From contig OX597817.1 of the NCBI GenBank assembly GCA_951406725.2, positions 93,806,001 to 93,870,000 of the forward strand: 64,000 nucleotides of DNA, in the 5' to 3' direction. Both the position numbers and the translations under genes were made by a program. The notes below the pieces were generated by a model that did no database searches, was not told where the DNA came from, and was given only the letters and a program-made list of their open reading frames with translations. Origin of the DNA: Octopus vulgaris. Taxonomy: Eukaryota. Shown here piece after piece: positions 4,501 through 61,830 of the stretch (the stretch's first letter is position 1; each line of letters begins with the position of its first letter).

Positions 4501-5000
4501 GGTCTCTCGCCTGGCAGTGCTACCGAGGGGCTCTGCCTGTTCGAGATAAACTCTACCGGCACGGAAGTGCCGTCAGCCGGGCCTGCCCGAGGTGTTGCCA
4601 GGACGACGAAACCGTTCTGCACGCACTCGTCCAGTGCCCGAGTATTGCTGAAATATGGGTTTATGTCGAACAGCTACTGTCACGTGTAGGACGGATCCGA
4701 CTATCGGCCGAATCCATAGTGAAGATTGCCCCGCCGACCTCCTTTAACAAGGAGGGCGAGGCCGTTTTCTTGTGCCTTGTGGCTGTGGCGAAAGAAGTCG
4801 TGTGGTGGACTCGTTTGAAAGGGCTAAAGTCAGACACTTTCCTCTTTGGTCAAGGCCTCATCAACTTTTTCAAGTTTCACTTGAAAAGGAAGATGAGGTT
4901 AGAGAGGAAAGTGCTGTCCGATAGCAAGTTTTATGAAAGGTGGGTGAATTGTGCGAGACTGGCCTGTATAAATGGACCAGTTCTCAGGTTTCGCCTGTGA
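1566..5000 (+). CDS. ORF2: AP-like endonuclease + reverse transcriptase + C-terminal Cys/His zinc motif, 1144 aa, intact
   Basis: APE motifs LNVRG, SET, GDWN, YLDRVF and TDHK; PGYWKLN linker; RT motifs SPGLDG, FRPITLLN, DQSKAFDRVDH, RQGCPLS and YADD; C-terminal CPRC...ETVLHALVQC. Confidence 0.96.
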   Translation: MANLRIGCLNVRGLGSPWKQGHLLNDLRFHDVDIAAISETRLSDPQELAALFGGYEIFLSPCRPGAGGGGTAVLFRKGLDLKIRTVFLDPEGKLVVLDVDGSDGGAFRLLAAYAPTGAGQSDYFKRLEVFLGTSRTLVLVGDWNAVLDERFDRVGRGASVRRGGGCKSLANLLGRFQLSDRFRLDNPNVPMWTWTNRIGSSRSYLDRVFCRPADKDSVGCPQFHLVEYTDHKLVICTVDLDRLHRQGPGYWKLNASLTACKAYRDRISLLVKRALTGAIINNNWWFALKRAIRVESIRYSKTLAIERRKRERDLVKKLDEALDTGIATDVLAARLALDQHFDAKHEGCVVRAKARSLSGEGTRAARWARVAEAKRGNRATIRSLVDQNGREVTQPKQMCTVLQRHFAQLFGTSGGTDTNGTDFGVYLDGLPQLSDSEAECCEGPISAWEVQEAMKSCTRGRSPGLDGLPYELYFSMPDLFADLLANVYCNWQQNGRIPAFVCRGVVALLKKDPNKGDVIGNFRPITLLNAELKILAKVLAKRLALVVDKLVGGTQTCAVPTRSIHDNLHLMRYIIERVGNDAGAGGALINLDQSKAFDRVDHRYLAAVLKAAGFGPVFRGWIAALYSNICSVIRVNGHLSEPFDISRSVRQGCPLSSLLYILTLEPLLRKLEALRGIPRDLGGGNSVSAYADDVTVVVSSHRHIGLIGETLNQYEAVTGAKINAEKSVGLQLGTWRGKPMPSNSVVGRWTDGPVKLLGVWFGPDLQVDKNWEEVTSRVARLTQKWAERKLSLKGRAEVANAYIASVIYYRLTVVPCPDRWLAKLVHLLFDFLWKGQVPLVRRSICCQRPLNGGLGMPWLLLRRHALRLRHLKRFLDGEQVWSSFVRRDFPQLVSLTELQTWIKRRPRKGAWHLECRQALSALHQAGNAVGYSSTLAFYRGLVEEKCDDVLGETLGVEDDELSGLFGRTFGPGPMDNFQRSLAWQCYRGALPVRDKLYRHGSAVSRACPRCCQDDETVLHALVQCPSIAEIWVYVEQLLSRVGRIRLSAESIVKIAPPTSFNKEGEAVFLCLVAVAKEVVWWTRLKGLKSDTFLFGQGLINFFKFHLKRKMRLERKVLSDSKFYERWVNCARLACINGPVLRFRL

Positions 5001-5299
5001 TTTCAAAGAAAAAGGTAATGTAAAAGGAGAAGAAAGGGGACTCTCTACACCCCCTTTTTTGACCAGGCTCCCGTTGGCTTTTGTAGGGTTTTTTCCACCG
5101 GGAACATTTCGAGACGTCTCCCCCTTTTGGGAGTTTTTCATTGTTGAATTTTATAAGTTGTTATAAAGATTTTTACTCGATGTTTTTAAAAAAACGGCAA
5201 AACCCTTTGTAAACTTTCGTCCTGTCTTGTCCCTTTATGTAATCATGCGTGTCAGCCCTTGTGGCCAATAAAAAAGAATTGATTATTATTATTATTATT

Positions 5300-5320
5300 C
5301 CTTCCGACGCCGATGGACGT
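5300..5320 (+). promoter_or_regulatory. Putative internal Pol II core promoter (DPE-like GGACGT) at element 5' end; recurs at every unit start
   Basis: GGACGT lies 15 nt after the first C in young copies (5315-5320) and in the diverged copy (30011-30016), although the 10 intervening nt differ. It matches the DPE consensus RGWYV. Confidence 0.5.
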
Positions 5321-5518
5321 ACGTGAATCAGCTCTGTGAGTTTTGTGCCAATTTTGTTGGAAATTTTTTAATAAGCTTGAATATTTTTTAATATTTTTGT
5401 AGCCAAACCGACCGGCTTCTTGCGGAGCTCGTCGGTTGGGCGAAATTTTGCCCCATTCGGGGTGAAATTACTGTCTATCCTTTTGAAATTGACATTTTTT
5501 GCACACACACATTACAAA

Positions 5519-7395
5519 ATGGCACTAAAACGAGCTGCTGGCTCTTCCTCCTTCTTGCAACACCCCCTACAAGAACAAAAAAAATAACGTCACGGGTTAC
5601 GTACAACCCATTTCAGGCCGTAAAAGGCAACAAAGCTCCTCCTTCCGAACCGGAGAGCACGCGCTCGGTTCAAAAGGAGAATGCATGCCAGGACGTCGCG
5701 TTCGACGTCACTCTTGATTTCCCCCTCTGCCTTCAACAAGTGATGCTGTACCGAAGGGGAGGTAAAGAAAATTATAACAGACACAAACACAGACAAGAAC
5801 CAACAAAAAACTGTAAAAGCTTCTAACGATTTTGCTTCTGCTGCGAAGCAAATTTCGGAAGATGTAGAAATTACAATGGAGGACATAAAAATGGCACAAG
5901 ATTTGTTGAGAAAGGAGGGGAACAGTGTTTTCCTCAACACACCTCAACAACTCACACAAGAAACAAGCAAAAGAACAATCTTTTATAAAGTCTTCGAAAA
6001 GAAAACTAAAAGATTGTTTAACGCCACACCACAACAGTTGGAGATGGCTCTGAAGCCCATTTGGGGCCAGAAGAGCTATGTGACAAGAGGGAAGCGATTT
6101 GGAACCGTGGAGGTTCGCTTCCCAACAGAGGAGCTTGCAAGGGCAAACGCCATTTCGCCCTTGCAAAATGAACATTTGTTCCTCGTCCCGACGTACCTCG
6201 GGCGTAAGGTACAAAAAATAACCATAAGCACAATACCCCCCGAACAGAAAATCTCATGGCTAGTGGCGGCTGTCCTCTATGGCATAGAGGACACTGCCAC
6301 TATTCTGAATGTTCGGAGGGTACGAGAAAAGAACTGGTCAGGCATGGGTATTCAACTGCTGGTACAGATCCAGCAGGAAAACATCAATGCCATACCTGAC
6401 TTTGTCATCTTGCTGGATGGGACCAGGCTAAATGTTATTGTAGAGGGGCGAAAGCCAAAATGTTTCCTCTGCAGTAGCGAAAGCCACCTAAAAAGGGACT
6501 GCCCCATTCAAAAAAAGAGAATGGAGGAGTATAGCAAGAGGCAGCAGCAACAACAACAACAACAACAACAACACAAGCAACAACAACAGAAACAACAAAA
6601 ACAGCAAGAAAAACCAAAGGCTGCCACACCACCAACACCATCACCAACACCAGCACCAAGACGAACAACACCACCTCCAACAACAACAACCACCACCAAA
6701 CCAACACCGACAACCACCACCAAACCAACACCGACACCAGTACCTCGAAGGTCGACAGCAGCGACATCAACAGTAACAGGAGCAGCGGCACCACCGATAC
6801 CGGCGGAACCTAAACTTTTCGTCCTGCTACTGAAGCAGACCCCTCAACCATTCCTTTGCCGGATGAAGAGATCTCGGATTGTGCGAGCTCGGATTCCAAC
6901 AAAGGAGAATGGAATATAGTACCTCCAAAAAAGAAAAGGAGGAAAAAACAAAAAGTTTTACAGGGGAAGCACGAACAAATAGTACTTCCCAACATCAACA
7001 ACAACATCAACAACAACACACACTCACAACAACAAACAACAACAACAACACTTTCGACACCACTACTGCCACTACCACAGACACAAACAAACACAGACAC
7101 AATTACAGACACGATTACAGCAGTGAATACAAGAAACCAGGAACTGGTTGAGTATTTGAAAAACAAAACAAGCACAAACATTACAGATTTCATAATACCT
7201 ACACACAACACACCACCAGCACACATTCTCACAATAAAAATAAACAAAACAGTGTACAATGAAATAAAACAAATATTCCCTAACGATGTGGGATCGTTAG
7301 GGAAAAGTTTCTCTCAGAAACTTTACAAAAATAATATTGAAGCACCCGTGCAAAAGCACAAGGGAGCCACCCCCACCACCAACAACAGTAAGTAG
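5519..7395 (+). CDS. ORF1 (consensus ~625 aa from MALKRAAG...), broken by homopolymer indels
   Basis: ATG at 5519 in AAAATGG context, also present in the old copy (MAMKRPVG). Pieces from different copies tile a single frame through the CCHC knuckle to ...TTNNSK*. Confidence 0.75.
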
Positions 7396-7435
7396 AGCCT
7401 TTTTTCTCCTTTTTTTTTCCCCTAACTTTTGAAAC

Positions 7436-10400
7436 ATGGCAAATCTTAGAATCGGTTGCTTGAATGTGAGAGGCCTCGGGTCACCTTGGAAACAGGGTCA
7501 CCTGTTAAACGACCTGAGGTTTCATGATGTGGATGTAGCAGCCATCAGTGAAACCAGGCTCTCCGACCCGCAGGAACTCGCAGCCCTTTTCGGCGGATAC
7601 GAGATATTTCTATCTCCGTGTCGGCCGGGAGCGGGCGGTGGTGGTACTGCGGTGTTGTTTCGGAAGGGCCTGGACCTGAAAATAAGGACAGTCTTCTTGG
7701 ATCCGGAAGGTAAGTTGGTGGTCCTCGACGTGGACGGTAGTGACGGCGGTGCTTTCAGACTGCTGGCTGCCTACGCTCCGACAGGAGCAGGGCAGTCGGA
7801 TTATTTCAAACGTCTGGAAGTTTTCCTGGGAACGTCACGCACTCTAGTACTAGTTGGGGATTGGAACGCTGTCTTAGACGAACGTTTCGATCGGGTGGGC
7901 AGGGGAGCGTCTGTTAGGAGAGGGGGTGGGTGCAAGAGCCTCGCCAACCTACTCGGCCGCTTTCAGCTGTCCGACAGGTTTCGACTAGACAACCCGAATG
8001 TGCCAATGTGGACTTGGACAAACCGCATCGGGTCGTCTAGATCGTACTTAGATAGAGTGTTTTGTAGGCCAGCGGATAAGGACAGCGTAGGGTGTCCACA
8101 ATTCCACCTAGTCGAATATACGGACCACAAATTAGTGATCTGTACGGTCGACTTAGATAGGCTACATAGACAGGGACCCGGCTACTGGAAGCTGAACGCG
8201 TCGTTAACGGCGTGCAAAGCTTACAGAGACCGGATTAGTTTACTAGTTAAGCGGGCGCTCACGGGGGCAATCATCAACAACAACTGGTGGTTTGCCCTCA
8301 AGAGAGCAATTAGAGTAGAGTCGATTAGGTATAGTAAGACTCTAGCTATTGAACGTAGGAAGAGAGAGCGGGATTTAGTTAAGAAACTAGACGAGGCTCT
8401 TGACACTGGCATCGCGACCGACGTGTTGGCGGCAAGGTTGGCCCTCGACCAACACTTCGACGCCAAACACGAAGGCTGCGTTGTCAGAGCTAAGGCACGT
8501 TCGCTAAGCGGGGAGGGGACTAGAGCCGCTCGATGGGCCCGCGTGGCGGAGGCGAAGCGAGGCAACAGAGCAACCATTCGGTCTTTGGTGGACCAGAACG
8601 GGCGCGAGGTTACCCAACCGAAGCAGATGTGTACGGTACTTCAGCGGCACTTTGCTCAACTGTTTGGGACGAGCGGTGGAACGGACACCAACGGTACAGA
8701 CTTCGGTGTGTACCTGGACGGACTGCCGCAACTCTCGGACAGCGAGGCAGAGTGCTGCGAAGGACCGATATCTGCCTGGGAAGTACAGGAAGCGATGAAG
8801 AGTTGCACGAGAGGTAGATCGCCGGGTTTGGATGGTCTGCCCTACGAGCTTTACTTTTCAATGCCAGACTTGTTTGCGGACCTGTTGGCAAACGTCTACT
8901 GCAACTGGCAGCAAAACGGGAGAATTCCTGCTTTTGTCTGTCGAGGGGTGGTGGCTTTGCTAAAGAAGGACCCAAACAAGGGGGACGTTATAGGCAATTT
9001 CCGGCCCATCACTCTGCTCAATGCAGAGTTGAAGATTTTGGCCAAGGTGCTAGCCAAGAGATTGGCGCTTGTCGTGGACAAGCTGGTCGGCGGGACGCAG
9101 ACATGCGCCGTGCCGACCAGGTCGATACACGACAACCTCCATCTCATGCGCTACATCATAGAGAGGGTGGGTAACGACGCTGGCGCGGGTGGGGCTTTGA
9201 TCAACTTGGATCAGAGTAAAGCCTTCGATAGGGTCGACCATCGGTACCTGGCAGCTGTCCTCAAGGCAGCCGGCTTCGGTCCAGTCTTCCGCGGGTGGAT
9301 CGCTGCTTTATACAGCAACATCTGCTCGGTGATACGGGTGAACGGTCACCTTTCGGAACCGTTCGACATCTCGCGTTCGGTCCGCCAAGGATGCCCTCTC
9401 TCCTCCCTCTTGTACATTTTGACTCTCGAGCCATTACTGCGCAAGTTGGAGGCTTTGAGGGGCATCCCGCGCGATCTAGGAGGCGGAAACAGCGTGTCTG
9501 CTTATGCCGACGACGTCACCGTGGTGGTGTCGAGCCACAGGCACATTGGCCTGATTGGCGAGACGCTAAACCAGTACGAAGCGGTGACAGGGGCAAAGAT
9601 TAACGCGGAAAAGTCTGTGGGCTTGCAACTGGGCACCTGGAGAGGCAAGCCCATGCCGTCCAACAGCGTCGTAGGGCGCTGGACAGACGGACCCGTTAAA
9701 CTGCTCGGGGTCTGGTTCGGTCCGGACCTCCAGGTGGATAAGAACTGGGAAGAGGTGACGAGCAGGGTGGCACGTCTCACCCAGAAATGGGCCGAGAGGA
9801 AGCTGTCCCTGAAAGGTCGAGCGGAGGTGGCGAATGCGTACATCGCATCCGTCATCTATTACCGCTTGACCGTCGTCCCTTGTCCCGACCGCTGGTTGGC
9901 CAAGCTGGTACGCCTGCTCTTCGACTTTTTGTGGAAGGGTCAGGTGCCACTGGTCAGGCGATCCATCTGCTGTCAACGACCGCTGAACGGAGGCCTTGGA
10001 ATGCCGTGGTTGCTGTTGCGCAGACATGCGCTCAGGCTGCGGCATCTCAAGCGCTTCCTAGACGGTGAACAGGTGTGGTCGTCTTTTGTCAGACGCGATT
10101 TTCCGCAGCTCGTCTCTTTGACGGAGCTGCAGACCTGGATCAAACGTAGACCGAGAAAGGGCGCTTGGCACCTCGAGTGCCGTCAAGCCCTCTCCGCCCT
10201 CCACCAGGCGGGCAATGCGGTCGGTTACAGCTCCACTCTAGCGTTCTATAGAGGGTTAGTGGAGGAAAAATGCGACGACGTTCTCGGGGAAACTCTAGGC
10301 GTTGAAGACGACGAACTGAGCGGTCTGTTCGGGAGGACTTTCGGGCCGGGGCCGATGGATAATTTCCAGAGGTCTCTCGCCTGGCAGTGCTACCGAGGGG

Positions 10401-10870
10401 CTCTGCCTGTTCGAGATAAACTCTACCGGCACGGAAGTGCCGTCAGCCGGGCCTGCCCGAGGTGTTGCCAGGACGACGAAACCGTTCTGCACGCACTCGT
10501 CCAGTGCCCGAGTATTGCTGAAATATGGGTTTATGTCGAACAGCTACTGTCACGTGTAGGACGGATCCGACTATCGGCCGAATCCATAGTGAAGATTGCC
10601 CCGCCGACCTCCTTTAACAAGGAGGGCGAGGCCGTTTTCTTGTGCCTTGTGGCTGTGGCGAAAGAAGTCGTGTGGTGGACTCGTTTGAAAGGGCTAAAGT
10701 CAGACACTTTCCTCTTTGGTCAAGGCCTCATCAACTTTTTCAAGTTTCACTTGAAAAGGAAGATGAGGTTAGAGAGGAAAGTGCTGTCCGATAGCAAGTT
10801 TTATGAAAGGTGGGTGAATTGTGCGAGACTGGCCTGTATAAATGGACCAGTTCTCAGGTTTCGCCTGTGA
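7436..10870 (+). CDS. ORF2 APE-RT, 1144 aa, intact
   Basis: Same motifs as copy 1. Differs at I34V and one H/R position. Confidence 0.96.
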   Translation: MANLRIGCLNVRGLGSPWKQGHLLNDLRFHDVDVAAISETRLSDPQELAALFGGYEIFLSPCRPGAGGGGTAVLFRKGLDLKIRTVFLDPEGKLVVLDVDGSDGGAFRLLAAYAPTGAGQSDYFKRLEVFLGTSRTLVLVGDWNAVLDERFDRVGRGASVRRGGGCKSLANLLGRFQLSDRFRLDNPNVPMWTWTNRIGSSRSYLDRVFCRPADKDSVGCPQFHLVEYTDHKLVICTVDLDRLHRQGPGYWKLNASLTACKAYRDRISLLVKRALTGAIINNNWWFALKRAIRVESIRYSKTLAIERRKRERDLVKKLDEALDTGIATDVLAARLALDQHFDAKHEGCVVRAKARSLSGEGTRAARWARVAEAKRGNRATIRSLVDQNGREVTQPKQMCTVLQRHFAQLFGTSGGTDTNGTDFGVYLDGLPQLSDSEAECCEGPISAWEVQEAMKSCTRGRSPGLDGLPYELYFSMPDLFADLLANVYCNWQQNGRIPAFVCRGVVALLKKDPNKGDVIGNFRPITLLNAELKILAKVLAKRLALVVDKLVGGTQTCAVPTRSIHDNLHLMRYIIERVGNDAGAGGALINLDQSKAFDRVDHRYLAAVLKAAGFGPVFRGWIAALYSNICSVIRVNGHLSEPFDISRSVRQGCPLSSLLYILTLEPLLRKLEALRGIPRDLGGGNSVSAYADDVTVVVSSHRHIGLIGETLNQYEAVTGAKINAEKSVGLQLGTWRGKPMPSNSVVGRWTDGPVKLLGVWFGPDLQVDKNWEEVTSRVARLTQKWAERKLSLKGRAEVANAYIASVIYYRLTVVPCPDRWLAKLVRLLFDFLWKGQVPLVRRSICCQRPLNGGLGMPWLLLRRHALRLRHLKRFLDGEQVWSSFVRRDFPQLVSLTELQTWIKRRPRKGAWHLECRQALSALHQAGNAVGYSSTLAFYRGLVEEKCDDVLGETLGVEDDELSGLFGRTFGPGPMDNFQRSLAWQCYRGALPVRDKLYRHGSAVSRACPRCCQDDETVLHALVQCPSIAEIWVYVEQLLSRVGRIRLSAESIVKIAPPTSFNKEGEAVFLCLVAVAKEVVWWTRLKGLKSDTFLFGQGLINFFKFHLKRKMRLERKVLSDSKFYERWVNCARLACINGPVLRFRL

Positions 10871-11384
10871 TTTCAAAGAAAAAGGTAATGTAAAAGGAGA
10901 AGAAAGGGGACTCTCTACACCCCCTTTTTTGACCAGGCTCCCGTTGGCTTTTGTAGGGTTTTTTCCACCAGGAACCTTTCGAGACGTCTCCCCCTTTTGG
11001 GAGTTTTTCATTGTTGAATTTTATAAGTTGTTATAAAGATTTTTACTCGATGTTTTTAAAAAAACGGCAAAACCCTTTGTAAACTTTCGTCCTGTCTTGT
11101 CCCTTTATGTAATCATGCGTGTCAGCCCTTGTGGCCAATAAAAAAGAATTGATTATTATTATTATTCCTTCCGACGCCGATGGACGTACGTGAATCAGCT
11201 CCGTGAGTTTGACACCAATTTTATTGGAAATTTTTGATAAGTTTGAATATTTTTTAATATTTTTGTAGCCAAACCGACCGGCTTCTTGCGGAGCTCGTCG
11301 GTTGGGCGAAATTTTGCCCCATTCGGGGTGAAATTACTGTCTATCCTTTTGAAATTGACATTTTTTGCACACACACATTACAAA

Positions 11385-28771: not shown

Positions 28772-29995
28772 CCTTCCGACGCCGATGGACGTACGTGAAT
28801 CAGCTCCGTGAATTTGACACCAATTTCATTGGAAATCATTTGATAAGTTTGAATATTTTTAAATATTTTTGTAGCCAAACCGACCGGCTTCTTGCGGAGC
28901 TCGTCGGTTGGGCGAAATTTTGCCCCATTCGGGGTGAAATTACTGTCTATCCTTTTGAAATTGACATTTTTTGCACACACACATTACAAAATGGCACTGA
29001 AACGAGCTGCTGGCTCTTCCTCCTTCTTGCAACACCCCCTACAAGAACAAAAAAAAATAACGTCACGGGTTACGTACAACCCATTTCAAGCCGTAAAAGG
29101 CAACAAAGATCCTCCTTCCGAACCGGAGAGCACGCGCTCGGTTCAAAAGGAGAATGCATGCCAGGACGTCGCGTTCGACGTCACTCTTGATTTCCCCCTC
29201 TGCCTTCAACAAGTGATGCTGTACCGAAGGGGGAGGTAAAGAAACTTGTAACAGACACAAACACAGACAAGAACCAACAAAAAACTGTAAAAGCTTCTAA
29301 CGATTTTGCTTCTGCTGCGAAGCAAATTTCGGAAGATGTAGAAATTACAATGGAGGACATAAAAATGGCACAAGATTTGTTGAGAAAGGAGGGGAACAGT
29401 GTTTTCCTCAACACACCTCAACAACTCACACAAGAGACAAACAAAAGAACAATCTTTTATAAAGTCTTCGAAAAGAAAACTAAAAGATTGTTTAACGCCA
29501 CACCACAACAGTTGGAGATGNNNNNNNNNNNNNNNNNNNNNNNNNNNNNNNNNNNNNNNNNNNNNNNNNNNNNNNNNNNNNNNNNNNNNNNNNNNNNNNN
29601 NNNNNNNNNNNNNNNNNNNNGGCAGGTTTTGTGAAGGGTGGGTGAATTGTGCGAGACTGGCCTGTATAAATGGACCAGTTCTCAGGTTTCGCCTGTGATT
29701 TCAAAAAAAAGGTAATGTAAAAGGAGAAGAAAGGGGACTCTCTACACCCCCTTTTTTTGACCAGGCTCCCGTTGGCTTTTGTAGGGTTTTTTCCACCGGG
29801 AACATTTCGAGACGTCTCCCCCTTTTGGGAGTTTTTCATTGTTTTTAATAATCATTGTTTAAAGTTTTTTACACGGATTTTTTAACAAACGGACAAAACC
29901 CTTTGTAACCTTTCGTCCTGTCTTGTCCCTTTATGTAATCATGCGTGTCAGCCCTTGTGGCCAATAAAAAAGAATTGATTATTATTATTATTATT
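28772..29995 (+). mobile_element. Tx1-clade element(s): 5' end of one copy and 3' end of a copy, separated by an assembly gap
   Basis: 5' UTR and ORF1 start to 29520, N100 at 29521-29620, then ORF2 C-terminus, 3' UTR and (ATT)6. Confidence 0.9.
29521..29620. other. Assembly gap (100 N) inside the array; true copy number unknown
   Basis: Run of 100 n. Confidence 0.99.
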
Positions 29996-30215
29996 CCTTC
30001 TCGAGAGGACGGACGTGTGTAAAGCTGCTCCGTAAGTTTTCTGCCAATTTGATTGGAAATTTCTGTAAAAGTTTTTATATTTTTCGATATTTATGTGGCT
30101 AAGCCAACTAACTTCTAGCGGAGCTAGTTGGCTCGGCAAAATTTTACCCCATTGGGGGTAAAATTACTGTTTGAACTTTACAATTGCAAAAATTTTACAA
30201 ACATTTTAAAACAAA

Positions 30216-32129
30216 ATGGCTATGAAGAGACCAGTCGGCTGTTCCCTTATACCATGAATACCCCCTCCACAACACACACATCACCAAACACGGTTCCAAA
30301 CCGCCCACTTCGCGCCATAAAAGGCAACAAAAATTTTCCTTTCGAAGCAGTAAGCACGTGCAGCGTTCGAAAGGAGAAAGAAAATAAGGACGTCACTTTC
30401 GACGTCATTGAAGATTTCCCTCCTCTTCCCTCCACCAATGCTCCGTTACCGGAGAAGGAGGGAAGAAAAAGCGTTCCAAATAAAAGTGACAACGATGGCG
30501 TCACCTTTGACGTCATCGAAGATTTTCCTTCTCTTCCCTCCACCAGTGCTCCAGTACCGGAGAAGGAGGGAAAGAAAATGACCAGCAACCACACTGACAC
30601 CACCACCAGCAACAACAGTGAAAGCCATCGTAGCAATTTCGCCTCCATTGCAAAACAAAGCTCGGAGGAAGTAAACATTACGATGGAGGAAATCAAAAGC
30701 GCAAAGGAGTTGTTGAGGAAAGAGGGGAACAGTGTTTTCCTCAATACACCTCAACAACTCATACATGACACTAACAAAAAGACAATATTTTACAAGGTTT
30801 TCGACAGAAAAAACAAAAAAACTAATTAACGCAACACCACAGCAATTTGAAATAGCTCTAAAGCCCATATGGGGCAAAAAGAGCTATGTCACCAGAGGAA
30901 AGCGTTTCGGAACCGTGGAGGTTCGTTTCCCAACAGAGGAGGATGCAAGGGAGCATGCCATTTCGCCCTTGCAAAATGAAAATTTGTTACTCGTTCCAAC
31001 GTACCTCGGGCGGAGAGTAACGAAAATAAAAATCGACCTAGTCCCCCCCCGAACTAAATATATCATGGTTGGTGGCGGCTGTCATCTATGACATAGAGGA
31101 CACTGCCACTATTCTGGATGTACGGAGAGTGAGGAAAAAACTTGTCAGGTATGGGAGTTCAACTGCTGGTACAAATCCAGCAGGAAAACATTAATGCCAT
31201 ACCTGACTCGGTAAATTTTCCGGACGGCACCAGGCTGCACGTTGCTGTGGAGGGGCGAAAGCCAAAATGCTACCTCTGCAGGAGTGAAAGCCACCTTAAA
31301 AGGGACTGCTCCATTTACAAGAAAAGAATGGAGGCAGACGGCAAGAGAGCAGCAGCAACAACAACAACAGAAACAACAACAGCACGAAACACCACCAACA
31401 CCATCACCACCACCACGACGAACGACACCACCTCCAACAACCACCAAACCAACACCAACCCCAACACCAAGAAAAACAACAACAAAAAAGGAAGAAGAAT
31501 CACCGACACCGTTACCATCATCAACAGATACAGCAACACCACCGCTACCAACAGAACCAACAATTTTTCGCCCTGCTGCTGAAGCGGACCCGACAGCCAT
31601 CCCCTTTCCGGATCAGGACAGCTCGGATTGTGCGAGCACAGATGCCGAGAAAGGTGAATGGCACACAGTGCCTTCGAAGAAGAAGAGGAGGAAGAAGCAA
31701 AAAGAAGACACACAGGGGAAGCACAAACAAATAGGGCTTCCCAACATCAACAACAACAACAACAGCAGACACACTCACAACAACAAACACCAACACTTTC
31801 GACACCACTACTGCCACTGCCACACACACCAACACACACAGACACGATTACAGCCATAAACACAAAAAAATGAAAAACTGGTTTCATATATAAAAGACAA
31901 CACAAGCACAAACATTACAGATTTCATAATACCTACACACAACACTCCACCAGCACACATTCTCACCATTAAAATTAACCAAAAGACATACAGTGACATA
32001 AAACAGAAATTCCCTAACGATGTCGGATCGCTAGGGAGAAGTTTCTCAAAGAAACTTTATAAAAATATTGTGGAAACACCCGTGCAAAAGCACAAGGGAG
32101 CCAACCCCACCACCAACAACAGTAAGTAG
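30216..32129 (+). pseudogene. ORF1 of old copy, frameshifted
   Basis: CYLCRSESHLKRDC knuckle, PSKKKRRKK, ends PTTNNSK*. Several indels. Confidence 0.8.
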
Positions 32130-32167
32130 AGCCTTTTTCTCCTTTTATTTTTTGTCACCTTTGAAAC

Positions 32168-35100
32168 ATGGCAAAACTTAGAATCGGTTGCTTGAATGTG
32201 AGAGGCCTCGGGTCACCTTGGAAACAGGGTCACCTGTTAAACGACCTGAGGTTTCATGATGTGGATGTAGCAGCCATTAGTGAAACCAGGCTCTCCGACC
32301 CGCAGGAACTCGCAGCCCTTTTCGGCGGATACGAGATCTTTCTATCTCCGTGTCAGCCGGGAGCGGGCGGTGGTGGTACTGCAGTGTTGTTTCTGAAGGG
32401 CCTGGACTTGAAAATAAGGACAGTCTTCCTGGATCCGGAAGGTAAGTTGGTGGTCCTCGACGTAGACGGTAGTGACGGTGGTGCTTTAAGACTGCTGGCT
32501 GCCTACACTCCGACAGGAGCAGGGCAGTCGGATTATTTCAAACGTCTGGAAGTTTTCCTGGGAACGTCACGCACTCTAGTGCTAGTTGGGGATTGGAACG
32601 CTGTCTTAGACGAACGTTTCGATCGGGTGGGCAGGGGAGCATCTGATAGGAGAGGGGGGTGCAAGAGACTCGCCAACCTACTCGGGCGCTTTCAGCTGTC
32701 CAACAGGTTTCGACTAGACAACCCGAATGTGTCAATGTGGACTTGGACCAATCGCATCGGGTCGTCTAGATCGTACTTAGATAGAGTGTTTTGTAGACCA
32801 GCGGATAAGGACAGCATAGGGTGTCCACAATTCCACATAGTCGACTACACGGACCACAAATTCGTGATCTGTACAGTCGACTTAGATAAGCTACATAGAC
32901 AGGGACCCGGCTACTGAAAGCTGAACGCGTCGTTAACGGCGTGCAAAGCTTACAGAGACCGGATTAGTTTACCAGTTAAGCGGGCGCTCACGGGGGCTAT
33001 CATCAACAACAACTGGTGGTTTGCCCTCAAGAGAGCAATTAGAGTAGAGTCGATTAGGTTTAGTAAGACTCTAGGTATTGAACGTAGGAAGAGAGAGCGG
33101 GATTTAGTTAAGAAACTAGACGAGGCTCTTGAGACTGGCATCGCGACCGACGTTTTGGCGGCAAGGTTGGCCCTCGACCAACACTTTGACACCAAACACG
33201 AAGGCTGCGTTGTCAGAGCTAAGGCACGTTCGCTAAGCGAGGAGGGGACTAGAGCCGCTCGATGGGCCCGCGTGGCGGAGGCGAAGCGAGGCAACAAAGC
33301 AACCATTCGGTCTTTGGTGGACCAGAACGGGCGCGAGGTTACCGAACCGAAGCAGATGTGTGCGGTGTTTCAGCGGCGCTTTGCTCAACTGTTTGGGACG
33401 AGCGGTGGAACGGACAACGGTACAGACTTTGGTGTGTACCTGGACGGCCTGCCGCAACTCTCGGACAGCGAGGCAGAGTGCTGCGAAGGACGAAGAGTTG
33501 CACGAGAGGTAGATCGCCGGGTTTGGATGGTCTGCCCTACGAGCTTTACACTTCAATGCCAGACTTGTTTGCGGGCCTGTTGGCAAACGTCTACTGCAAC
33601 TGGCAGCAAAACGGGAGAATTCTTGCTTTTGTCTGTCGAGGGGTGGTGGCTTTGCTGAGAAAGGATCCAAACAAGGGGAACATTATAGGGAATTTTCGGC
33701 CCATCACTCTGCTCAATGCAGAGTTGAAGATTTTGGCCAAGGTGCTAGCCAAGAGATTGGCGCTTGTCGTGGACAAGCTGGTTGGCAAGATGCAGACATG
33801 CGCCGTGCCGACCAGGTCGATACACGACAACCTCCATCTCATGCGCTACATCATAGAGAGGGTGGGTAACGAAGCTGGCGTGGGTGGGGCTTTGACCAAT
33901 TTAGATCAGAGTAAAGCCTTCGATAGGGTCGACCATCGGTACCTGGCAGCTGTTCTCAAGGCAGCTGGCTGCAGTCCAGTCTTCCGCGGGTGGATCACTG
34001 CTTTATACTGCAATGTCTGCTCGGTGATACGGGTGAACTGTCACCTTTTGGAACCGTTTGACATCTCGCGTTCGGTCCGCCAAGGGTGCCCTATCTCCTC
34101 CCTCTGGTACATATTGACTCACGAGCCATTACTGCGCAAGTTGGAGGCTTTGAGGGGTATCCCGCGCGATCTAGGAGATGGAAACAGCGTGTCTGCCTAT
34201 GCCGACGAGGTCACCGTGATGGTGTCGAGCCACAGGCACATTGGCCGGATTGGCGAGACGCTAAACGAGTACGAAGCGGTGACAGGGGTAAAGACTAACG
34301 CGGAAAAGTCTGTGGGCTTGCAACTGGACACCTGGAGAGGCAAGACCATGCCGTCCAACAGCGTCGTAGGGCGCTGGACAGATGGACCCGTTAAACTGTT
34401 CGGGGTCTGTTTCGGTCCGTACCTCCAGGTGGATAAAAACTGGGAAGAAGTGACGAGCAGGATGGCACGTATCACCCAGAAATGGGCCGAGAGGAAGCTG
34501 TCCGTGAATGGTCGAGCGGAGGTGGCGAATGCGTACATCGCATCCGTCATCTATTACCGCTTAACCGTCGTCCCTTGTCCCGACCACTGGTTGGCCAAGA
34601 TGGTACGCCTTCTCTTCGACTTTTTGTGGAAGGGTCAGGTACCACTGGTCAGGCGATCCATCTGCTGTCAACGACCGCTGAACGGAGGCCTTGGCATGCC
34701 GTGGTTACTGATGCGCAGACATGCGCCCAGGCTGCAAATCTCAAGCGTTTCCTAGACGGTGAACAGGGGTCGTCTTTTGTCAGACGCGACTTTCCGCAGC
34801 TCGTCTCCTTGACAGAGCTGCAGACCTGGATCAAACGTAGACCGAGAAAGGGCGCTTGGCACCACGAGTGCCGTCAAGCTCTCTCCGCCCTCCGCCAAGC
34901 GGGCAATGCGATCTGCGATCGGTTTTAGTTCCACTCTAGCGTTCTATAGAGGGTTAACTCTAGGCGTTGATGATAACGAACTGAGCGGTCTGTTCGGAAG
35001 GACTTTCGGGCCGGGGCTAATGGATAATTTCCAGACGTCGCTCGCCTGGCAGTGCTACCGAGGGGCTCTGCCTGTTCGGGATAAACTCTACCGGCACGGA

Positions 35101-35411
35101 AGTGCCGTCAGCCGGGTCTGCCCGAGGTGTTGCCAGGACGACGAACCGTTCTGCACACACTCGTCCAGTGCCCGAATATTGCTGAACTATGGGTTTATGT
35201 CGAACAGCTACTGTCACGTATAGGACGGATCCAGCTATCAGCTGAATCCATAGTGAAGATTGCCCCGCCGACCTCCTTCAACAAGTTACAGTTGAAAAGG
35301 AAGATGAGGTTAGAGAGGAGAATGCTATCTGATAGCAAGTTTTCTGAAAGGTGGGTGAATTGTGCAAGAATGGCCAGTGTAAATGGACCAATTCTCAGGT
35401 TTCACCTGTAA
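32168..35411 (+). pseudogene. ORF2 of old copy, inactivated
   Basis: TGG>TGA at 32915-32917, YADD>YADE, and deletions near 33490, 34955 and 35285. Confidence 0.9.
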
Positions 35412-35691
35412 TTGAAAAAGGTATTATTAAAGGAGAAAGGGGCTCTCTACCCACCTTCTGACCAGGCTTCCGTGGCTTTTATGGGTTTTTCCACGTGAGA
35501 CCTTTTCTTTTTTCGTAACGCCTCCCCCTATTGGGAGTTTTTCGTTGTTATATTTTCGTTGTTAAACTGCCTTTTTACTCGATTGTTTCAAAAACCGACA
35601 AAACCTTTTGTAACCTTTTGTCCTGTTTTGTCCCTTTATGTTTTCTAATCATATTTGTCAGCCCTTGTGGCCAATAAAAAGAATTAATTAA

Positions 35692-38600
35692 TGCTCTGAT
35701 GGTTACTGTATTGAAAGTGTTCTGCATAGGATGTGTGCAGTGCCTAGTAGCGCAATTTTTTGTATGTTATATGTGTTTGTAAGTCCTGGTGTTTTTGTTA
35801 TGTATTTGTCTGAATAATTTTTATCATGCCTAATGCACCTACTATGATAGGAATTGTTTCTGTTTTTAGATTCCACATTCTGGTTACCTCTATTTCCAGG
35901 TCTTTGTATTTTGAAAGTTTCTCCATTTCTTTTAGAGACACGTTGTCATCTGCCGGTATTGATACATCAATTAGAAAGCATTTTTTTTCTTCATGATTTC
36001 TGACAACTATATCTGGTCTGTTGGCCTTAATTTCTCTATCTGTGTGTATCGGCATATCCCAGAGTATGGTTGCTTTCTCATTTTCTGTGACCTTTTCTGG
36101 TGTGTGCCTATACCATCTTTTTTCTGTTGTTATTCCATAATGTTGGCATAGCTTCCAGTGTATGTAGGTTCCAACTCTGTCATGTCTGTGAATATATTCC
36201 TTCTTAGCCAGGAATGGGCAGCCAGAGATAATATGATTTATTGTTTCTTGTCCATCTCCACATATTCTGCAGTTACTTGTTATATTTCTTTTCATTACAT
36301 GTTTTTGGTAATTTCTGGTGGGGAGGCTTTGGTCTTGTGCTGCAATTAAAAATCCCTCTGTCTCTGCTTTGAGTCCTGAGCTTCTCAACCATTGCTGGGA
36401 TTTTTCTTTGTCTATTTCTTTTGCGTTTAGTTTAGTCCACTATTTACCATGAAGGGGCTTTTCTTGCCATCGTTTTATCATGGTTCTTTGCTGTTCTATT
36501 TTTAGTTTGGATTTCATTTGTTTTATAGCTTTTGTTGTTTTCTTCTTCTTCTTCTTCTTCTTCTTCTTCTTCTTCTTCTTCTTCTTCTTCTTCTTCTTCT
36601 TCTTCTTCTTCTTCTTCTTCTTCTTCTTCTTCTTCTCCTTCTTCATATTTATTAGGTGGTATGATTTCTTGTTTGTATTTGTCAGCTTCCTTAAATATTG
36701 AGAACAGTTTTTTGTTTTGCTCGTGTTTTGCCGCTATTTGTATCAGTTTTCCTTCCTTCTGAAGTAGATATTTTTGAAGTCCTATGGTGGTTATTTTATT
36801 GTAGTTTTCCAGCTGTATAAGGCCTCTACCACCTTTTATACGTTGTATATATAGTCTTTCTATGTCAGATTTTGGGTGATGCATTCTAGATCCTGTCATT
36901 ATTTTTCTTGTTTTCCTATCTATTTTGGTCAGTTCATTTAGTGTCCAGTAAAGTATATTGTAACTGGTACGGCTAAAGTGTTAATACCTATTATCTTGTT
37001 TTTAGCATTGAGCTCTGTTTTTAGTATTGATCTAACTCGTCTATAATATTCTTTTTTTATTTTCTCTTTCATTTGTGTGTGTTGTGTCTCATCTAGTTCA
37101 TGAATTCCTAAGTATTTGTAAGTTTGGCTTTGGTCTAATTCTTTTATTTCATTGGTTTTATCTAGTGTGATGTTGCTACTATTAACTATTTTTCCTCTTT
37201 TCAGGGTTACTTTGGCGCATTTTTCTAATCCAAATTTCATATCTATTTCTTTGGTAAATCCATGAACTGTCTTTAATAGTGTTTCCAGCTGTTTGTCATT
37301 TGCAGCGTATAGTTTTAGGTCATCTATATATAAAAGGTGGCTGATCGTTTTGCCGTAACATTTATATCCGCATCCAGTTCTATTTAGCATATCAGATAGA
37401 GGTGACAGTGCTAAGCAGAAAAGGAGTGGAAAGAGCGTGTCTCCCTGGAATATTCCTCTTCTAATGGGGATGGCTTTGGTTTTCATGAGTCCCTCTTTTG
37501 TTTGGAGCTGTAGCACTGTTTGCCATTTATTCATAGAGTGCCCTATGAATTTTATAATTGTTGGCGCTACTTTGTTAATGGCTAGTGTTTCGAGGATCCA
37601 TGTGTGGGGGATGCTATCAAACGCCTTTTTGTAGTCGATCCAGGCCATACTGAGGCCTTTCTTCTTTCTGTGGCTGTCTTCAGTTATGGCTTTATTAATC
37701 ATTAGTTGATTTTTACAGCCATATGAGCCTTTGCGGCATCCTTTCTGCTCTTCTGGAAACAGGTTGTTTTCGTCAAGGTGCTTGTTCAGCCTTTGCGATG
37801 TCACTGCAGTAAATGCCTTGTACATTGTAGGGAGATAGGTTATTGGTCTGTAGTTTTCTGGTTTTGCTGTCTCATTTGATTTGGGAATTAAGATGGTTTT
37901 CCTTCGTGAGCCATTCAGGCATTGTCTCTGGCTCTGCTAGTATGTTGTTAAAGTTTTCAGCCAGCTTTTTGTGCATTCCTGTTAGATATTTCAACCAGAA
38001 GTTGGGGATCTTGTCATGCCCAGGTGCCTTCCAGTTGCTTAGTCTTTGCAGTGCCTGGGTGGCCTCTTCAGTTGTTATGGGGGTCCAAAGTTGCTCAGAT
38101 GCTGAGTTTGTTGTTTTAATACTCCTTTTTTTTAGTTGATCGTTCGCCGACCATATTTCTCTCCAGAATTCTTCCACTTCTTCTGCCGTTGGTGCTGCAG
38201 TGATTTCTATTTTATTTTTGCCAAGTTCTTGGTAGAACTTTTGGGATTGGAGTTGAACTTTTTGTTTTGTTCAAAGAAGCGCTGGCGTTTCTCGTACCGG
38301 CGGATCCTTTGTGCTTTGGCAAGGATATCTTGCTTCGGCTTTTCTTTTATCTCAAGTACATCTTTTTCTGTGATGTTATATTTGCGGAGTATTTTTGTTT
38401 TCTTTTTGTTGCTCAGTAGCGTTGATTGTCTACTGATTTTATTAAGAATCGACAGATCTTTTCTCCTTTTTTGTATTTTGTTTTGGATGTTATTTACCCA
38501 CAGGGTTTGTTTGGGTGGTGGTACTCCTGTTTGGATGGGTTTGAGTGAGAATCCAGCTTCTTTTGTGGCTGCAGTGGCTGCTGCGTATACTAAGTCATTT

Positions 38601-39510
38601 AGCTCAGTGATATCGCTTTTCGTTTCAGTGGCTATTAGTTCCGTGACGGCTAGGTTTATGCTGTTTATAATTGGAGTTGTTGTTTAGTCTATTTTGATTT
38701 TTGGGAGGTATGGTCGGTGGTCCATTTTGAGCTCTGTGGTTTTCAGGTCTTTGACTATTTTACTTTTTATATTATCATAATAATTAGGCTCCCCTTCGTT
38801 GTTTCCAGGTTTTAGATTTGTGTCGCTTTCTTTCTTATTTATATGTTTGTTTGCTGTGTTTTGGCTTGCTGTTTGTCGTGTATTATTATGCATCCTTACG
38901 GTCTGGGTTTGTTGTTTTTTGTTTACATCGTGTTTTACTGTTTCAGTGTTTATATTATTGGGCATTGTTGTGTGGCTTCTATCTACATTTTCCTGGTGTA
39001 TTTTTTCTTTTAGATGTTCTATTTCTATTTCTGATATGTTTTTGCGTTGAGAATGTATCTTCGTACGTTAGCTAGCTTATTAGGGTTCATTGCTGTATCC
39101 AAGTCTATATTTATGTTATTTTCCTTCCATATTTTATATGTATGTGTTGTTGTGTTTTCATTTTTTGGGTAGAGCACTGCTGTGAAGTATGCGTGTAGGA
39201 TAGAAATGTATTCCTCACGTGTCCATTTATGTCTTTTGGGTTTTATTTGCGGGACATGAGGAACAACGTCCGGCCCATTATTTTGATGGTCGTCATTTTC
39301 GTAGGGTACCGGTCCGTTCATTTCTGTTGTCACATTGTTTTGCACATGTAGTTTTTCGTACATTCTGTGTTGTAAGTTGTAAGTTGTAAGTTGTACGTAC
39401 TTCCCGATTGTTATTCTTGGGTTGAATAATATCGGTGGTATTTAATTTCTTCGTAGTTCCTTTGTGCATGGTGTTTGGGGTCGGGGATGATCTGGTGTTG
39501 ATGGATCGTA
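35692..39510 (-). mobile_element. R4/Dong-clade non-LTR retrotransposon (RT + restriction-like endonuclease), near full length, frameshifted
   Basis: N-terminal KWTREEY; RT GIFQGD..PLLF and YIDDLKL; CRICGDGQETINHIISGC knuckle; RHD and RPDIV..D..K..KY RLE motifs. Stop at 35703-35705. 5' end abuts (TAA)n. Confidence 0.9.
36541..36634. repeat. (TTC)n microsatellite inside the Dong ORF (poly-Glu on the element strand)
   Basis: About 31 TTC units. Confidence 0.95.
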
Positions 39511-39552
39511 ATGTTATTATTATTATTATTATTATTATTATCATTATTATTA

Positions 39553-39616
<64 letters not shown>

Positions 39617-39621
39617 CATTA

Positions 39622-39667
<46 letters not shown>

Positions 39668-39674
39668 CATTATT

Positions 39675-39728
<54 letters not shown>

Positions 39729-39753
39729 GTTGTTGTTGTTGTTGTTGTTATTA

Positions 39754-39827
<74 letters not shown>

Positions 39828-39879
39828 GTTATTATTATTATTATTATTGTTATTATTATCATTATCATTATTATTATTA

Positions 39880-39926
<47 letters not shown>

Positions 39927-41104: not shown

Positions 41105-43525
41105 GTTGGAAGTTCATGTTGGCGTTATGCCTAGGGTGCTATATATTTGGTTTTGTACATAGTGTTGTTCTAGAGAATGTTTAAGAAACCATAAAAAAAT
41201 CATGTTTGTTTTTAAATTTGAGATTACATAGAAAGTATTTTGCGTAGGATATGAGCAGTTCCCATGGGCACTATCTTTTGAATTTCTGCAATTTTGGGGT
41301 TTCCTGGTATCTGAGCTAGGTAGCAATCAGCCCCCTTTGCTATCATTCCCAGGGCATCTATGACAACAGGTATTCTTTTAGTCTTCAGGTTCCACATTTT
41401 GCTCATTTCTATTTCAAGATCTCTATACTTGCTTGGTTTTTGGTAGGTCTTGACAGATACTTTTATATCGGTTGGGACAGTCATATCCATGAGGAGGCAT
41501 GATTTTCGTCTGAAGTCTTTCAAAATGATGTCTAGCCTATTTACATCTATCTTTCTATCAGTTTGAATGGTGAAGTTCCAGAGGAGTGAGATGTAATCAT
41601 TTTCAAGCACTGGAGGTGTTTTGTGTTCCCACCAGTTTTTATCATGGGGCAAGTCCAGGTTTTTGCAAATTACCCAGTGAATATATTGTGCAGCTCTATC
41701 ATGCCTGTTGAGATACTCTGTAGGCGCTAGAAGACTGCACTTGGAGACAACATGATCAATGGTTTCATTTTGTTGTTGAAATACACGACATGTTGGGCTA
41801 CTGCCGTTCTTTAATACGTTGGCCTGGTAGAAGACCTTGTGGGTAAGTATTGATCTTGGGCTGCTATGATAAACCCTTCTGTTTCAGATTTTAAGCCAGA
41901 AGCCATTAGCCATTGATGGGTAAGTGTTTTGTCAACATCGGCATTATTCGCTCTCTTTGGGTATTTGCCATTAAGAGGTTTTTCTTGCCACTTATCAGTC
42001 AGAATATCTAAGGCAGCAGTTTTAGCACAGGTTTTCATGCGTTTAACTTTTTCTGCGCTTGTTTCTCGTATGTCTAATTCCGGAATTTATTGTATTTGGA
42101 ATTCACTTAGATATTCCTTTGCCTGTTTTGTTACTGAGTATGATGCTTTCTTATTTCCATGTTTTGAGACAAGTTTTAACATCTAGTCCCCAGAGTTTTT
42201 CAGGTATGTGTCTAGGCCAATTGTGGCAATCCTCATTGTTAATCTCAGTTGTAAAAGTCCACGGCCTCCCTCTTTTCTTGGCATATAAAGTCATTCTACA
42301 TCTGCCTTAGGGTGGTGCATTCTATGCATTGTCAACAGTTTTTGTATTTTTCTGTCAAGATTACATATTTCAGTAATTGACCAGTTAATGATATTGAAAC
42401 TATAAGTCACGACTTGTATGGCTAAAGCATACTTTGCTCTCACCCTGCGATAGCATTCTCTCCTGATCCTTTCCTTCATCATTGAATGCCTGATTCCTTC
42501 CCCTTCAAGTATCCCTAGGTATTTGTAGCTGTCCGCTGGTTCTAAATCGTTTATGACATTCTGCTTCTCAAGGTTTACGTTAGATGTTCCTATCATTTTT
42601 CCTTTGATAAAGGTAGCTTTTGAACATTTATCGAAGCCAAACTGCATTCTGATGTCATCACTGAATTGTTTAACAATTGCTGGTCATTTTTTGCAAAGAG
42701 CTTTAAATCATCCATGTAAATGTGATGATTTATACCTTTATCAAACATTTTATAACCGTACTGTGCATCATTGAGCAATTTTGAGAGAGGTATTGAGGCT
42801 AGAGAAAAGAGGAGTGGTGATAGTGAGTCACCCTGGAAAATGCCACATGAAATTCTTACATCCCCAGCATTTAGAGATTCATTGTCACTGTTCAAAGTCA
42901 GTGTGGTTCTCCATGATCTCATACTTACTGACAAAAAGTTTCGCAGAGTAGGAGCTATTTTATACATTTCCAGACATTTCTTAATCCAACTATGTGGTAG
43001 GCTATCAAAAGCTTTTTTTATAGCCTATTCAGGCTATTGGCAAATTTTTGTGTCGTTGTGACAATCTTCTAAGATCATCTTATTGATGAGTAACTGGTCT
43101 TTACGACCATAGGATCCACGTTTACATCTTTTTTTCTCATTAGGGAATATGCTGCGTTCTATTAAAAAACTATAGGTATATTCAGTCAGGACAGATGTTA
43201 GCATTTTATAAGTGTTGTTAAGCAGGTTTATGGGTCTATAATTCTTTGGTTCATTTGTTTCTTCATTTTTTGGAAGATGGAATGTTAAACCATTAACTAG
43301 CCAAAAGGGCATCATACAAAACTTCGTTGTAAAGTTCTGTTAGCAGTTCATGGCTCTCAGGGAAGGCATTCAACCACAAGTTAGGAATTTTATCCTTTCC
43401 TGGAAACTTCTATATGCTTGATCTCCTGAGAGCAGATCTTATATCTTCTACCTTGATATCCTTCCACTTTTGCTCCTCTAAGGAGTGTAAGTCTGTACAT
43501 ATTCTGTCAATCCAAGGGGCCTTTT
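41101..43525 (-). mobile_element. R4/Dong element, 5'-truncated, degenerate
   Basis: GIFQGDSLSPLLF, YMDDLKLF, SGLKSETEGFIIAAQDQ, TDRKIDVNRLDII and KYRDLEIE motifs in fragmented ORFs. Confidence 0.88.

Positions 43526-43572: not shown

Positions 43573-43611
<39 letters not shown>
43526..43611. repeat. Compound (TCA)(GTT)(ATT)n microsatellite
   Basis: Read directly from sequence. Confidence 0.95.
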
Positions 43612-43612
<1 letters not shown>

Positions 43613-43614
43613 TT

Positions 43615-44775
43615 CATCTACTACCGCCTCTCCATCGTGCCCTGTCTCAGTTGGAGTCGAACCAAACTGGAGCGCCTACTATTCCGCTTTCCGTGGAAGT
43701 GACGCGTTCCAATGGTCAGGAGCTCCATTTGCTGCTAACACTCGCTAAATAGATGGCTGGACATGCCGTGGCTATTGATGCGCAGACATGCGTTGAGCTT
43801 GTGGCATCTCCAGCTCTTCTTATACGGTGAGCTGGTGTGGTCGCTATATGTCAGATGCAATTTCCCATAGCTTGCCTTTTTGCCTAAGCTGTAGAGCTGG
43901 ATCAAGGGTAGACCGAGGAAGGACTCCTGGCACCTAGAGTGTCGCCAGGCGCTCACACTCTTCTGTCAGCTGGGCAATGCGGTCAATGGAAATTCTACAA
44001 TGGCGTTCTATAGCGGGTTAATGGCGGGTAAGTGCGACGACGTTCTCGGGGGGACTGGGCATCGACAAGAACGAGTTGGTTGATTTGTTCCGGAGAACTT
44101 CGGACCGGGGCCTATGGATAATTTCCAGAAATCCTTGACCTGGCAGTGCTACCGAGTGGGGGATACTACCTGTTCGAGATAAACGCTACAGTCAACCGAG
44201 CTTGCCCGAGATGCGCGCTGAGTGACGAAACCGTTCTGCAGGCTCTCGTCCAATGCTCGAGAATTTCTGACTCGGGTGTAAGACGAATCCGGTTATCGGC
44301 TGAGTCCGTTGTGAGGGTATCCCCTTGGCTGTTTTTCTTTGTCTGGTGGCCTTAGCGAAAGAGGTTGTGTGGTGGACCAGGTTGAAAGGGCTGAAGACAT
44401 ACTTTCCTCTTTAAACAAGTCCTCATCAACATTTGTAAATTTCACTTGAAAAGTAAAGTGAGGGTGGAGAGTGAAGTTCTTTCTCCTAGCTATTTTGTCA
44501 AAAGGTGGGTGAATGTCGCAAGACAGTGAATGGGCCTACTTTAAGTGTGCGTCTGTAGACAAAGCAGAAAGGGCACTGGTGGTCTGGTGATCAGGACTGC
44601 TGTAGACTTGTGGGGTTTTCACGAGCAGTCCTAGGAGGTTTCCCTCTTTTGGGGAATTTCCTTGTTATATTCGATTATTGGTTTTTACCCGACTTTCAAT
44701 AACCCCACATTGTATTTGTCCTGTGTTGTCCATAATGTTTTTTTTATGTAAACACTTTGCGGTTAATAAATACAT
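43615..44775 (+). mobile_element. 5'-truncated, decayed Tx1 element of a related family (ORF2 C-terminus + 3' UTR)
   Basis: Aligns by eye to array ORF2 from IYYRL through MPWLLMRRHA, GPMDNFQ and RACPRC..DETVL. Ends AATAAA then (ATT)n. Confidence 0.88.
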
Positions 44776-44788
44776 CATTATTCTCATA

Positions 44789-52251: not shown

Positions 52252-53978
<1,727 letters not shown>

Positions 53979-54006
53979 TATATATATATATATATATACA
54001 CACACA

Positions 54007-61829: not shown

Positions 61830-61830
61830 T

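Follow-up and report, generated by a model that had tools for sequence, protein, structure and literature searches.

A head-to-tail array of L1-group LINEs in Octopus vulgaris with ATT repeats and a candidate downstream promoter element at its junctions

Results

The array and its neighbors

The DNA analyzed here is a 64,000-nucleotide stretch of the Octopus vulgaris genome (assembly GCA_951406725.2, contig OX597817.1, positions 93,806,001 to 93,870,000, forward strand; "the window" below), and its positions 1-35690 are a head-to-tail array of a 5.87-kb element. Table 1 lists the features of the array and of the DNA to its right. The young units of the array differ from one another by 8-55 substitutions, and the old copy that follows them is 88% identical to them overall and 71% identical across the first 744 nt. 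In this 5' part (5300-6050 versus 29996-30750) there has been either quicker divergence or replacement. The six element heads are preceded, in order, by 6, 5, 6, 5, 3 and 6 ATT units. An assembly artefact is rejected as the whole explanation of the array, since the units differ by the substitutions given above and an independent contig bridges a junction (below). Single-base indels are partly assembly errors, because an extra C at 5546 that is absent from unit u1 is present in contigs of all four sequencing runs compared, and for the same reason the 3-unit ATT run ahead of the head at 28772 may also be an error.

Table 1. Positions of the array, its junction features and the neighboring elements in the window
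Feature	Position	Strand	Remarks
Young array, head-to-tail	1-29520	+	Heads at 5300, 11167, 17039, 22903 and 28772; extends past window start
AATAAA	5267-5272	+	Close to the 3' end of the upstream element
(ATT)6 junction run	5282-5299	+	Contains predicted +1; probably 3' tail of upstream copy plus target-site remnant
TCT-like polypyrimidine initiator candidate, at C5300	5298-5305	+	YYCTTTYY 7/8; consensus from PMC5580651
u1, single full array unit	5300-11166	+	
CCTTC	5300-5304	+	At element boundary; exactly conserved young/old
N10 spacer	5305-5314	+	MTE-register match within its own shuffles (P 0.21 young, 0.78 old)
DPE-like GGACGT	5315-5320	+	RGWCGTKY 7/8 across 5315-5322
5' UTR hairpin 1	5402-5441	+	16 pairs, 2 changed on both sides young versus old
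5' UTR hairpin 2	5444-5469	+	11 pairs, all kept
ORF1 region	5519-7395	+	Start ATG 5519; frameshifted in assembly; single weak CCHC knuckle
ORF2	7433-10870	+	1145 aa; APE endonuclease, RT and zf-RVT
N gap closing young array	29521-29620		
Young-type tail before old head	29621-29995	+	94-96% identical to other young tails; terminal (ATT)6
Old copy	29996-35690	+	3' end with a single ATT unit; RGWCGTKY 8/8 at 30011
R4/Dong-like LINE	35691-39513	-	Between old copy's tail and long ATT run
ATT/TTA microsatellite	39514-39926	+	~137 units; probably the original right flank of the array
(ATT)11	43578-43610	+	Directly 5' of truncated relative
5'-truncated relative	43612-44776	+	60% aa identity in best segment; ATT runs on both sides

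The element has an ORF1 followed by an ORF2 with an N-terminal APE endonuclease, an RT and a C-terminal cysteine-rich motif, which is the arrangement of the L1 group, and judged by its sequence the array element is an L1-group LINE. The closest solved structure to ORF2 is human LINE-1 ORF2 (E 2e-51), while R2 gives E 2e-22. The zf-CCHC match in ORF1 (E 0.053) is short of the cut-off, and no ORF1 similarity was found in the 59 homologues in which it was sought. We take the element to be Tx1-like within this group; the RT tree, built from 26 of 27 chosen rows, includes no row labelled Tx1, and in it P0001 lies within a 97/97 clade of eight rows, the other seven of which are unnamed.

The 5' UTR (folding z -3.3 and -3.9) contains two adjacent predicted hairpins. 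In the comparison of young with old (30098-30165), 53 of 54 cells are paired, two pairs being changed on both sides and four on one; with only two distinct sequences this covariation is not significant (126 of 500 shuffles). The hairpins are possibly a translation or packaging signal.

Several other elements lie in the window. The minus-strand LINE next to the old copy presumably belongs to the R4/Dong type, judging from its domain pattern, and its ORF contains, in frame, a (TTC)35 microsatellite (36540-36644) that reads as poly-Glu. Degraded R4/Dong-like copies are present at 41227-43285 (minus), 45925-46875 (minus) and 57656-58372 (plus), the last being interrupted near its 3' end by an L1-like fragment (58640-60340). 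There is also a Tc1-type transposase ORF of 351 codons at 52621-53676 (minus) with inverted repeats at 52332-52575 and 53756-53998, and a 166-bp tandem repeat at 61830-62513 (4 copies, 92% alike).

A conserved motif at the element heads

The sequence CCTTC-N10-GGACGT is found six times in the window, always on the plus strand and always at one of the six element heads. The ATT run, the CCTTC, the spacer, the GGACGT and the old head have the positions given in Table 1. The coordinates in the initial annotation of this DNA (5282-5320 for the young junction, GGACGT from 5315) are right, as is its statement that the N10 has diverged (3 of 10 positions match between young and old). It had also stressed that the spacing of CCTTC and GGACGT is exactly kept between young and old copies. 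That spacing is real, but its conservation is no more than chance would give: no gap is needed to align the first 200 nt of the young 5' UTR with those of the old one (145 of 200 positions identical, 0 indels), so that the conserved spacing has no evidential weight, and GGACGT is one among 13 identical runs of at least 5 nt in these 200 nt, several of which are longer.

The RGWYV 5-mer by which the GGACGT had been recognized as DPE-like is present in the element at about 21 sites per kb on each strand. GGACGT is the sole RGWYV match common to the young and old heads in 200 nt, and the DPE consensus RGWYV(T) / DSWYVY is matched at all six heads. (Published papers are cited here by PMC accession.) The Drosophila LINEs Doc, F, G, I and jockey carry the downstream element RGWCGTKY near +29 to +36 (PMC1636488), and Penelope has RGACGTGY (PMC2377424); this same 8-nt motif is present here near the 5' end, with 8/8 positions matched in the old head and 7/8 in the young head. 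Of 3000 whole-UTR shuffles, 1.4% (young) and 1.2% (old) placed RGWCGT within the first 40 nt, and these shares rose to 6.4% and 12.1%, respectively, when just the GC-richer first 40 nt were shuffled. An RGWCGTKY match of 8/8, as in the old head, arose in 0.4% of whole-UTR and 2.8% of local shuffles, and one of at least 7/8, as in the young head, in 12.5% and 21.5%. Because the motif was picked after the fact, all these figures make the match look stronger than it is. As a control, a second RGWCGT at 5691 (unit position 392, in the ORF1 region) is kept in both young and old copies, so a match of this kind can persist outside the head as well.

On sequence grounds, GGACGT appears modestly more than a chance match and a fair promoter lead. 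Its reading as a DPE is reasonable, with a better match to RGWCGTKY than the initial annotation saw, but it is a candidate whose initiator is weak (below). The DPE requires exact spacing from the Inr, and promoter classes with Inr+DPE have been reported throughout the set of animals studied (PMC8384218); in annelid CAGE data, promoters with the DPE motif did not stand out in any feature, and the element might lack a function there (PMC7854359).

Candidate transcription starts

If the DPE is placed at +28, +1 is A5288 in the young copy and A29984 in the old copy, exactly as had been counted before. A +29 register was rejected; it puts a T at +1 in five of six heads. The Inr-like TTATT that had been proposed around this position fares less well: the predicted +1 is the A of TTATTA at five of six heads, but the initiator score in the DPE register is mediocre there (TCAKTY 4/6, YYANWYY 6/7), and at the head at 28772, with its 3-unit ATT run, the match fails, +1 being T28760, outside the run (TCAKTY 1/6, YYANWYY 2/7). 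By simple arithmetic an arbitrary start point within an ATT run has 1-in-3 odds of being an A. The optional MTE/Bridge element (consensuses from PMC4581360 and PMC5580651) scores 9/11 and 7/11 in this register, values that are equalled by 21% and 78% of N10 shuffles.

As a judgement rather than a computed value, we consider A5288 to be the single likeliest start, although with somewhat less than an even chance of being correct; dispersed, upstream, read-through or other starts are jointly a little less probable than this, and a start at C5300/5301 is less probable again.

The ATT run as tail and target

Among the loose ends listed for run X3, tails continue in ATT and then pass into unrelated DNA, so the ATT run at the junctions is partly tail. 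The 5'-truncated relative starts at most 3 nt past (ATT)11 (rough chance 0.004), and because a truncated copy cannot bring such a run from its transcript start, the (ATT)11 is best read as target DNA. The contention that the composite promoter is formed only at junctions finds no support, since here ATT precedes a copy that has no family tail upstream of it. From these sequences, ATT/TAA microsatellites appear to be the insertion sites of the element family, so that upstream ATT would be expected in solo copies too. Two of the three L1-like insertion loci in this one microsatellite-rich window are in ATT; the third, a more distant L1-like relative on the minus strand at 58640-60340, is not. 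LINEs have been classed as microsatellite-specific when the target repeat is found in >20% of flanks (PMC4494074).

The single ATT unit at the 3' side of the old copy abuts the 3' end of the minus-strand R4/Dong-like LINE, whose other end meets the ~137 ATT units. Dong elements target TAA repeats (PMC3812793), and the simplest reading is therefore that the old copy and the R4/Dong-like LINE share one microsatellite. Each of the two ATT-flanked L1-like insertions (35690, 44933) meets the 3' end of an R4/Dong-like element on the other strand, which suggests that different LINE families share TAA/ATT microsatellites.

No tRNA or Rfam target was found at the junctions. The 80 metagenome loci that hold relatives (mostly 23-37% identity in the best segment) have no DNA similarity to the head or tail, no run of at least 4 ATT/TAA units and no terminal redundancy, and the viral contigs searched contain 0 relatives. 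The sole genome-contig match (L081) was discarded as a 21-nt chance match in a bacterial MAG.

Block copying and contigs across the junction

Two variants are common to the tails of u1 and u4, and six are common to the heads next to these tails, those of u2 and u5; the unit bodies are mosaics. Since tail variants are linked to next-head variants across junctions, junction-spanning blocks have been copied, and the five young junctions are therefore not five independent events; there are about two independent examples. The copying is explained most simply by unequal exchange or conversion, and read-through RNA could yield the same tail-head linkage. LINE tandems have been described as arising in two steps, from a double insertion at one target and a later unequal exchange (PMC5932611).

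Four of 24 sequencing runs were compared; all 24 consist of contigs, which show no starts, and of the 20 sources behind them none is on record as RNA, 14 being guessed to be so. Run X3, whose RNA origin is such a guess, has a 251-nt contig that crosses the junction (5198-5445), which places the junction in a second data set as well, and if X3 is indeed RNA the contig would be a read-through transcript. The X3 depth over 5308-5409 equals that of the single contig joining tail to head. Run X17 (organism C) matches 5304-5454 apart from a single difference, and a second organism label thus has the young head too. Tail depth is greater than head depth in all four runs, most so in X3, X15 and X17, a difference that must be read with the caveat that contig depth cannot rank gene parts. 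For one X3 loose end before 5281 it is ambiguous which head it belongs to.

Discussion

A model for the array

From the array anatomy, the motifs, the ATT on both sides of the truncated relative and the block copying, we infer targeting, an order of events and promoter function as follows. The array would be the product of an ATT-targeting, L1-group, Tx1-like LINE with an internal 5' promoter that was amplified in tandem, an explanation to which we give slightly better than even chances. The LINE would end in (ATT)n and insert by preference into (ATT)n/(TAA)n microsatellites; a head-to-tail pair would result when another insertion hit the ATT run ahead of a full-length copy, unequal exchange or conversion would then have multiplied the junction, and the 3-6 ATT units at each junction would be tail plus target remnant. 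The first 20-40 nt of the element would contain an internal Pol II promoter, active in any full-length copy that has landed in ATT, whether alone or in tandem. If +1 is A5288, the RNA would open with four AUU units and the 12 nt of ATT would be inherited by every new full-length copy, in which case the promoter would be nearly self-contained rather than junction-born. Against this explanation, the window has no solo full-length copy, the 3' side of the old copy has just one ATT unit and the third L1-like locus lies outside ATT; the weak initiator with its failure at 28772, the MTE result, the annelid data and the X3 contig across the junction also count against it.

A more ambitious version, in which targeting, promoter and tandem formation are coupled, seems to us rather unlikely. 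In it the target microsatellite would itself be the LINE's initiator: the DPE would set +1 twelve bases into the ATT, and the RNA would both begin and end with AUU, a redundancy resembling a miniature LTR R region. This terminal redundancy would prime reverse transcription at ATT targets, the cDNA end would anneal to ATT and give seamless 5' joining, and the enzyme could jump from the head of one RNA to the tail of another and so make head-to-tail chains.

Alternative explanations

The alternative that survives best, although we regard it as no better than a minority candidate, is that transcription starts at the boundary, at C5300/5301, on a TCT-like polypyrimidine initiator, with GGACGT at +16 being factor-binding or incidental and the ATT merely tail and target. 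YYCTTTYY is matched at 7/8 positions at the first C of both heads (C5300, C29996), CCTTC is conserved exactly at the boundary, most non-LTR elements begin at their very 5' end (PMC1636488), and such a start also fits the 3-unit junction at 28772. However, 7/8 matches to YYCTTTYY are plentiful (they occur at 121 of the unit's 11720 positions), the TCT initiator is rare outside translation genes and does not function with a DPE (PMC5580651), and the 8/8 RGWCGTKY match is left unexplained.

It is doubtful, and somewhat more so, that the motif is a chance match in a GC-richer, indel-poor head whose true promoter is elsewhere or dispersed. The frequency of RGWCGT in local shuffles (6-12%), the ordinariness of a 6-nt run at 72% background identity (13 runs of at least 5 nt) and the after-the-fact selection of the motif all favor this view; it has greater difficulty with GGACGT being the only shared RGWYV in 200 nt, with its survival beside an N10 that matches at 3/10 positions and with the 8/8 match in the old head.

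Less probable still is a pseudo-LTR or read-through arrangement of the HeT-A/Penelope kind, in which RNA from the neighbor's 3' UTR or from host DNA runs through the junction. The linkage of tail variants with the next head at two junctions and the X3 contig across 5198-5445 are what it predicts, and it has precedents in HeT-A and Penelope (PMC1636488, PMC2377424), but the RNA status of X3 is guessed, contigs show no starts, and DNA-level exchange accounts for the linkage equally well. In addition, the tail ahead of the old head is young-type rather than its own, and no ribozyme or other Rfam family was found at threshold: the window has 0 Rfam hits at gathering score, 5' HDV-like ribozymes included, a search by which divergent folds could be missed, and the region 5000-5600 has four sub-threshold, unrelated Rfam hits.

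The strict form of the initial annotation, in which the promoter exists at tandem junctions only and the initiator comes from the upstream neighbor's tail alone, is very improbable: all six heads seen do sit at junctions, the X3 depth over 5308-5409 does match that of the sole tail-head contig and +1 is an A at five of six heads, but ATT lies ahead of the truncated relative without an upstream family tail, a start at 5288 would place 4 ATT units in every new full-length copy, and the block-copied young junctions reduce the sample to about two independent examples.

Comparison with known elements

Under the model that we favor, an ATT-targeting LINE with an internal promoter, each ingredient is already known. 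In the Drosophila LINEs the motif is at about +29 to +36 of the element, whereas here, in another LINE group and host and recognized by sequence alone, it is 16 nt from the first non-repeat base, and it is for this reason that +1 would fall in the simple repeat. The Kibi (TC)n, Koshi (TTC)n and crocodilian (TTCC)n/(TTTC)n Tx1 families resemble the present element in being L1-group LINEs with APE and RT that are flanked by one type of microsatellite, and tandem insertions around the target duplication have been reported for the Tx1-mobilized SINEU-3 (PMC4494074, PMC3812793). The accessible parts of these two papers give an (ATT)n/(TAA)n target, seen here at 2 loci only, just for Dong. The Drosophila R1 array likewise consists of full-length head-to-tail LINEs that are separated by target and were then amplified (PMC5932611); the R1 target is rDNA, while that of the present array is a microsatellite.

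The tandem promoters of HeT-A and Penelope share with this locus the head-to-tail order and a start upstream of the element boundary (PMC1636488, PMC2377424), and HeT-A had been offered as a loose analogy. The comparison breaks down in that HeT-A starts at -31 to -93, within the neighbor's own element-specific 3' UTR (PMC1636488), whereas here the upstream contribution would be just 12 nt of simple repeat for which any ATT run would be sufficient; the candidate motif is in the downstream head, and ATT is not neighbor-specific. In R2, a target-matching 5' stretch on the RNA anneals to give precise 5' junctions, with which the precise junctions at 6/6 heads here may be compared; R2 gains that stretch by rDNA co-transcription and an HDV-like ribozyme (PMC11331408), and no Rfam family reaches threshold here. 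R2 would be a closer analogy than HeT-A if the A5288 start is right. For SART1, too, it has been proposed that RNA ends of repeat-like sequence anneal to a repeat target (PMC7265360).

The L1-Tx1, Dong-R4 and Tc1 groups are given as recently active in octopus (PMC13282606), and the present family may already be included in the supplement of that paper or in its Zenodo repeat library. Within the literature searched, a scope that lies outside Repbase and subscription papers, there was no report of a target-supplied initiator or of an ATT-targeting Tx1-like family.

Should transcription start at CCTTC, this would be a microsatellite-targeting LINE array of the ordinary kind, in which ATT is a Tx1-like target that has possibly gone unreported. 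If the start is in the ATT run, the core promoter of this LINE would be completed by the repeat that it targets. There would then be a simple reason for the maintained choice of target, in that copies outside ATT would be silent or weaker, and DPE-type LINE promoters would be extended to the L1/Tx1 group, providing a natural test of the DPE outside insects.
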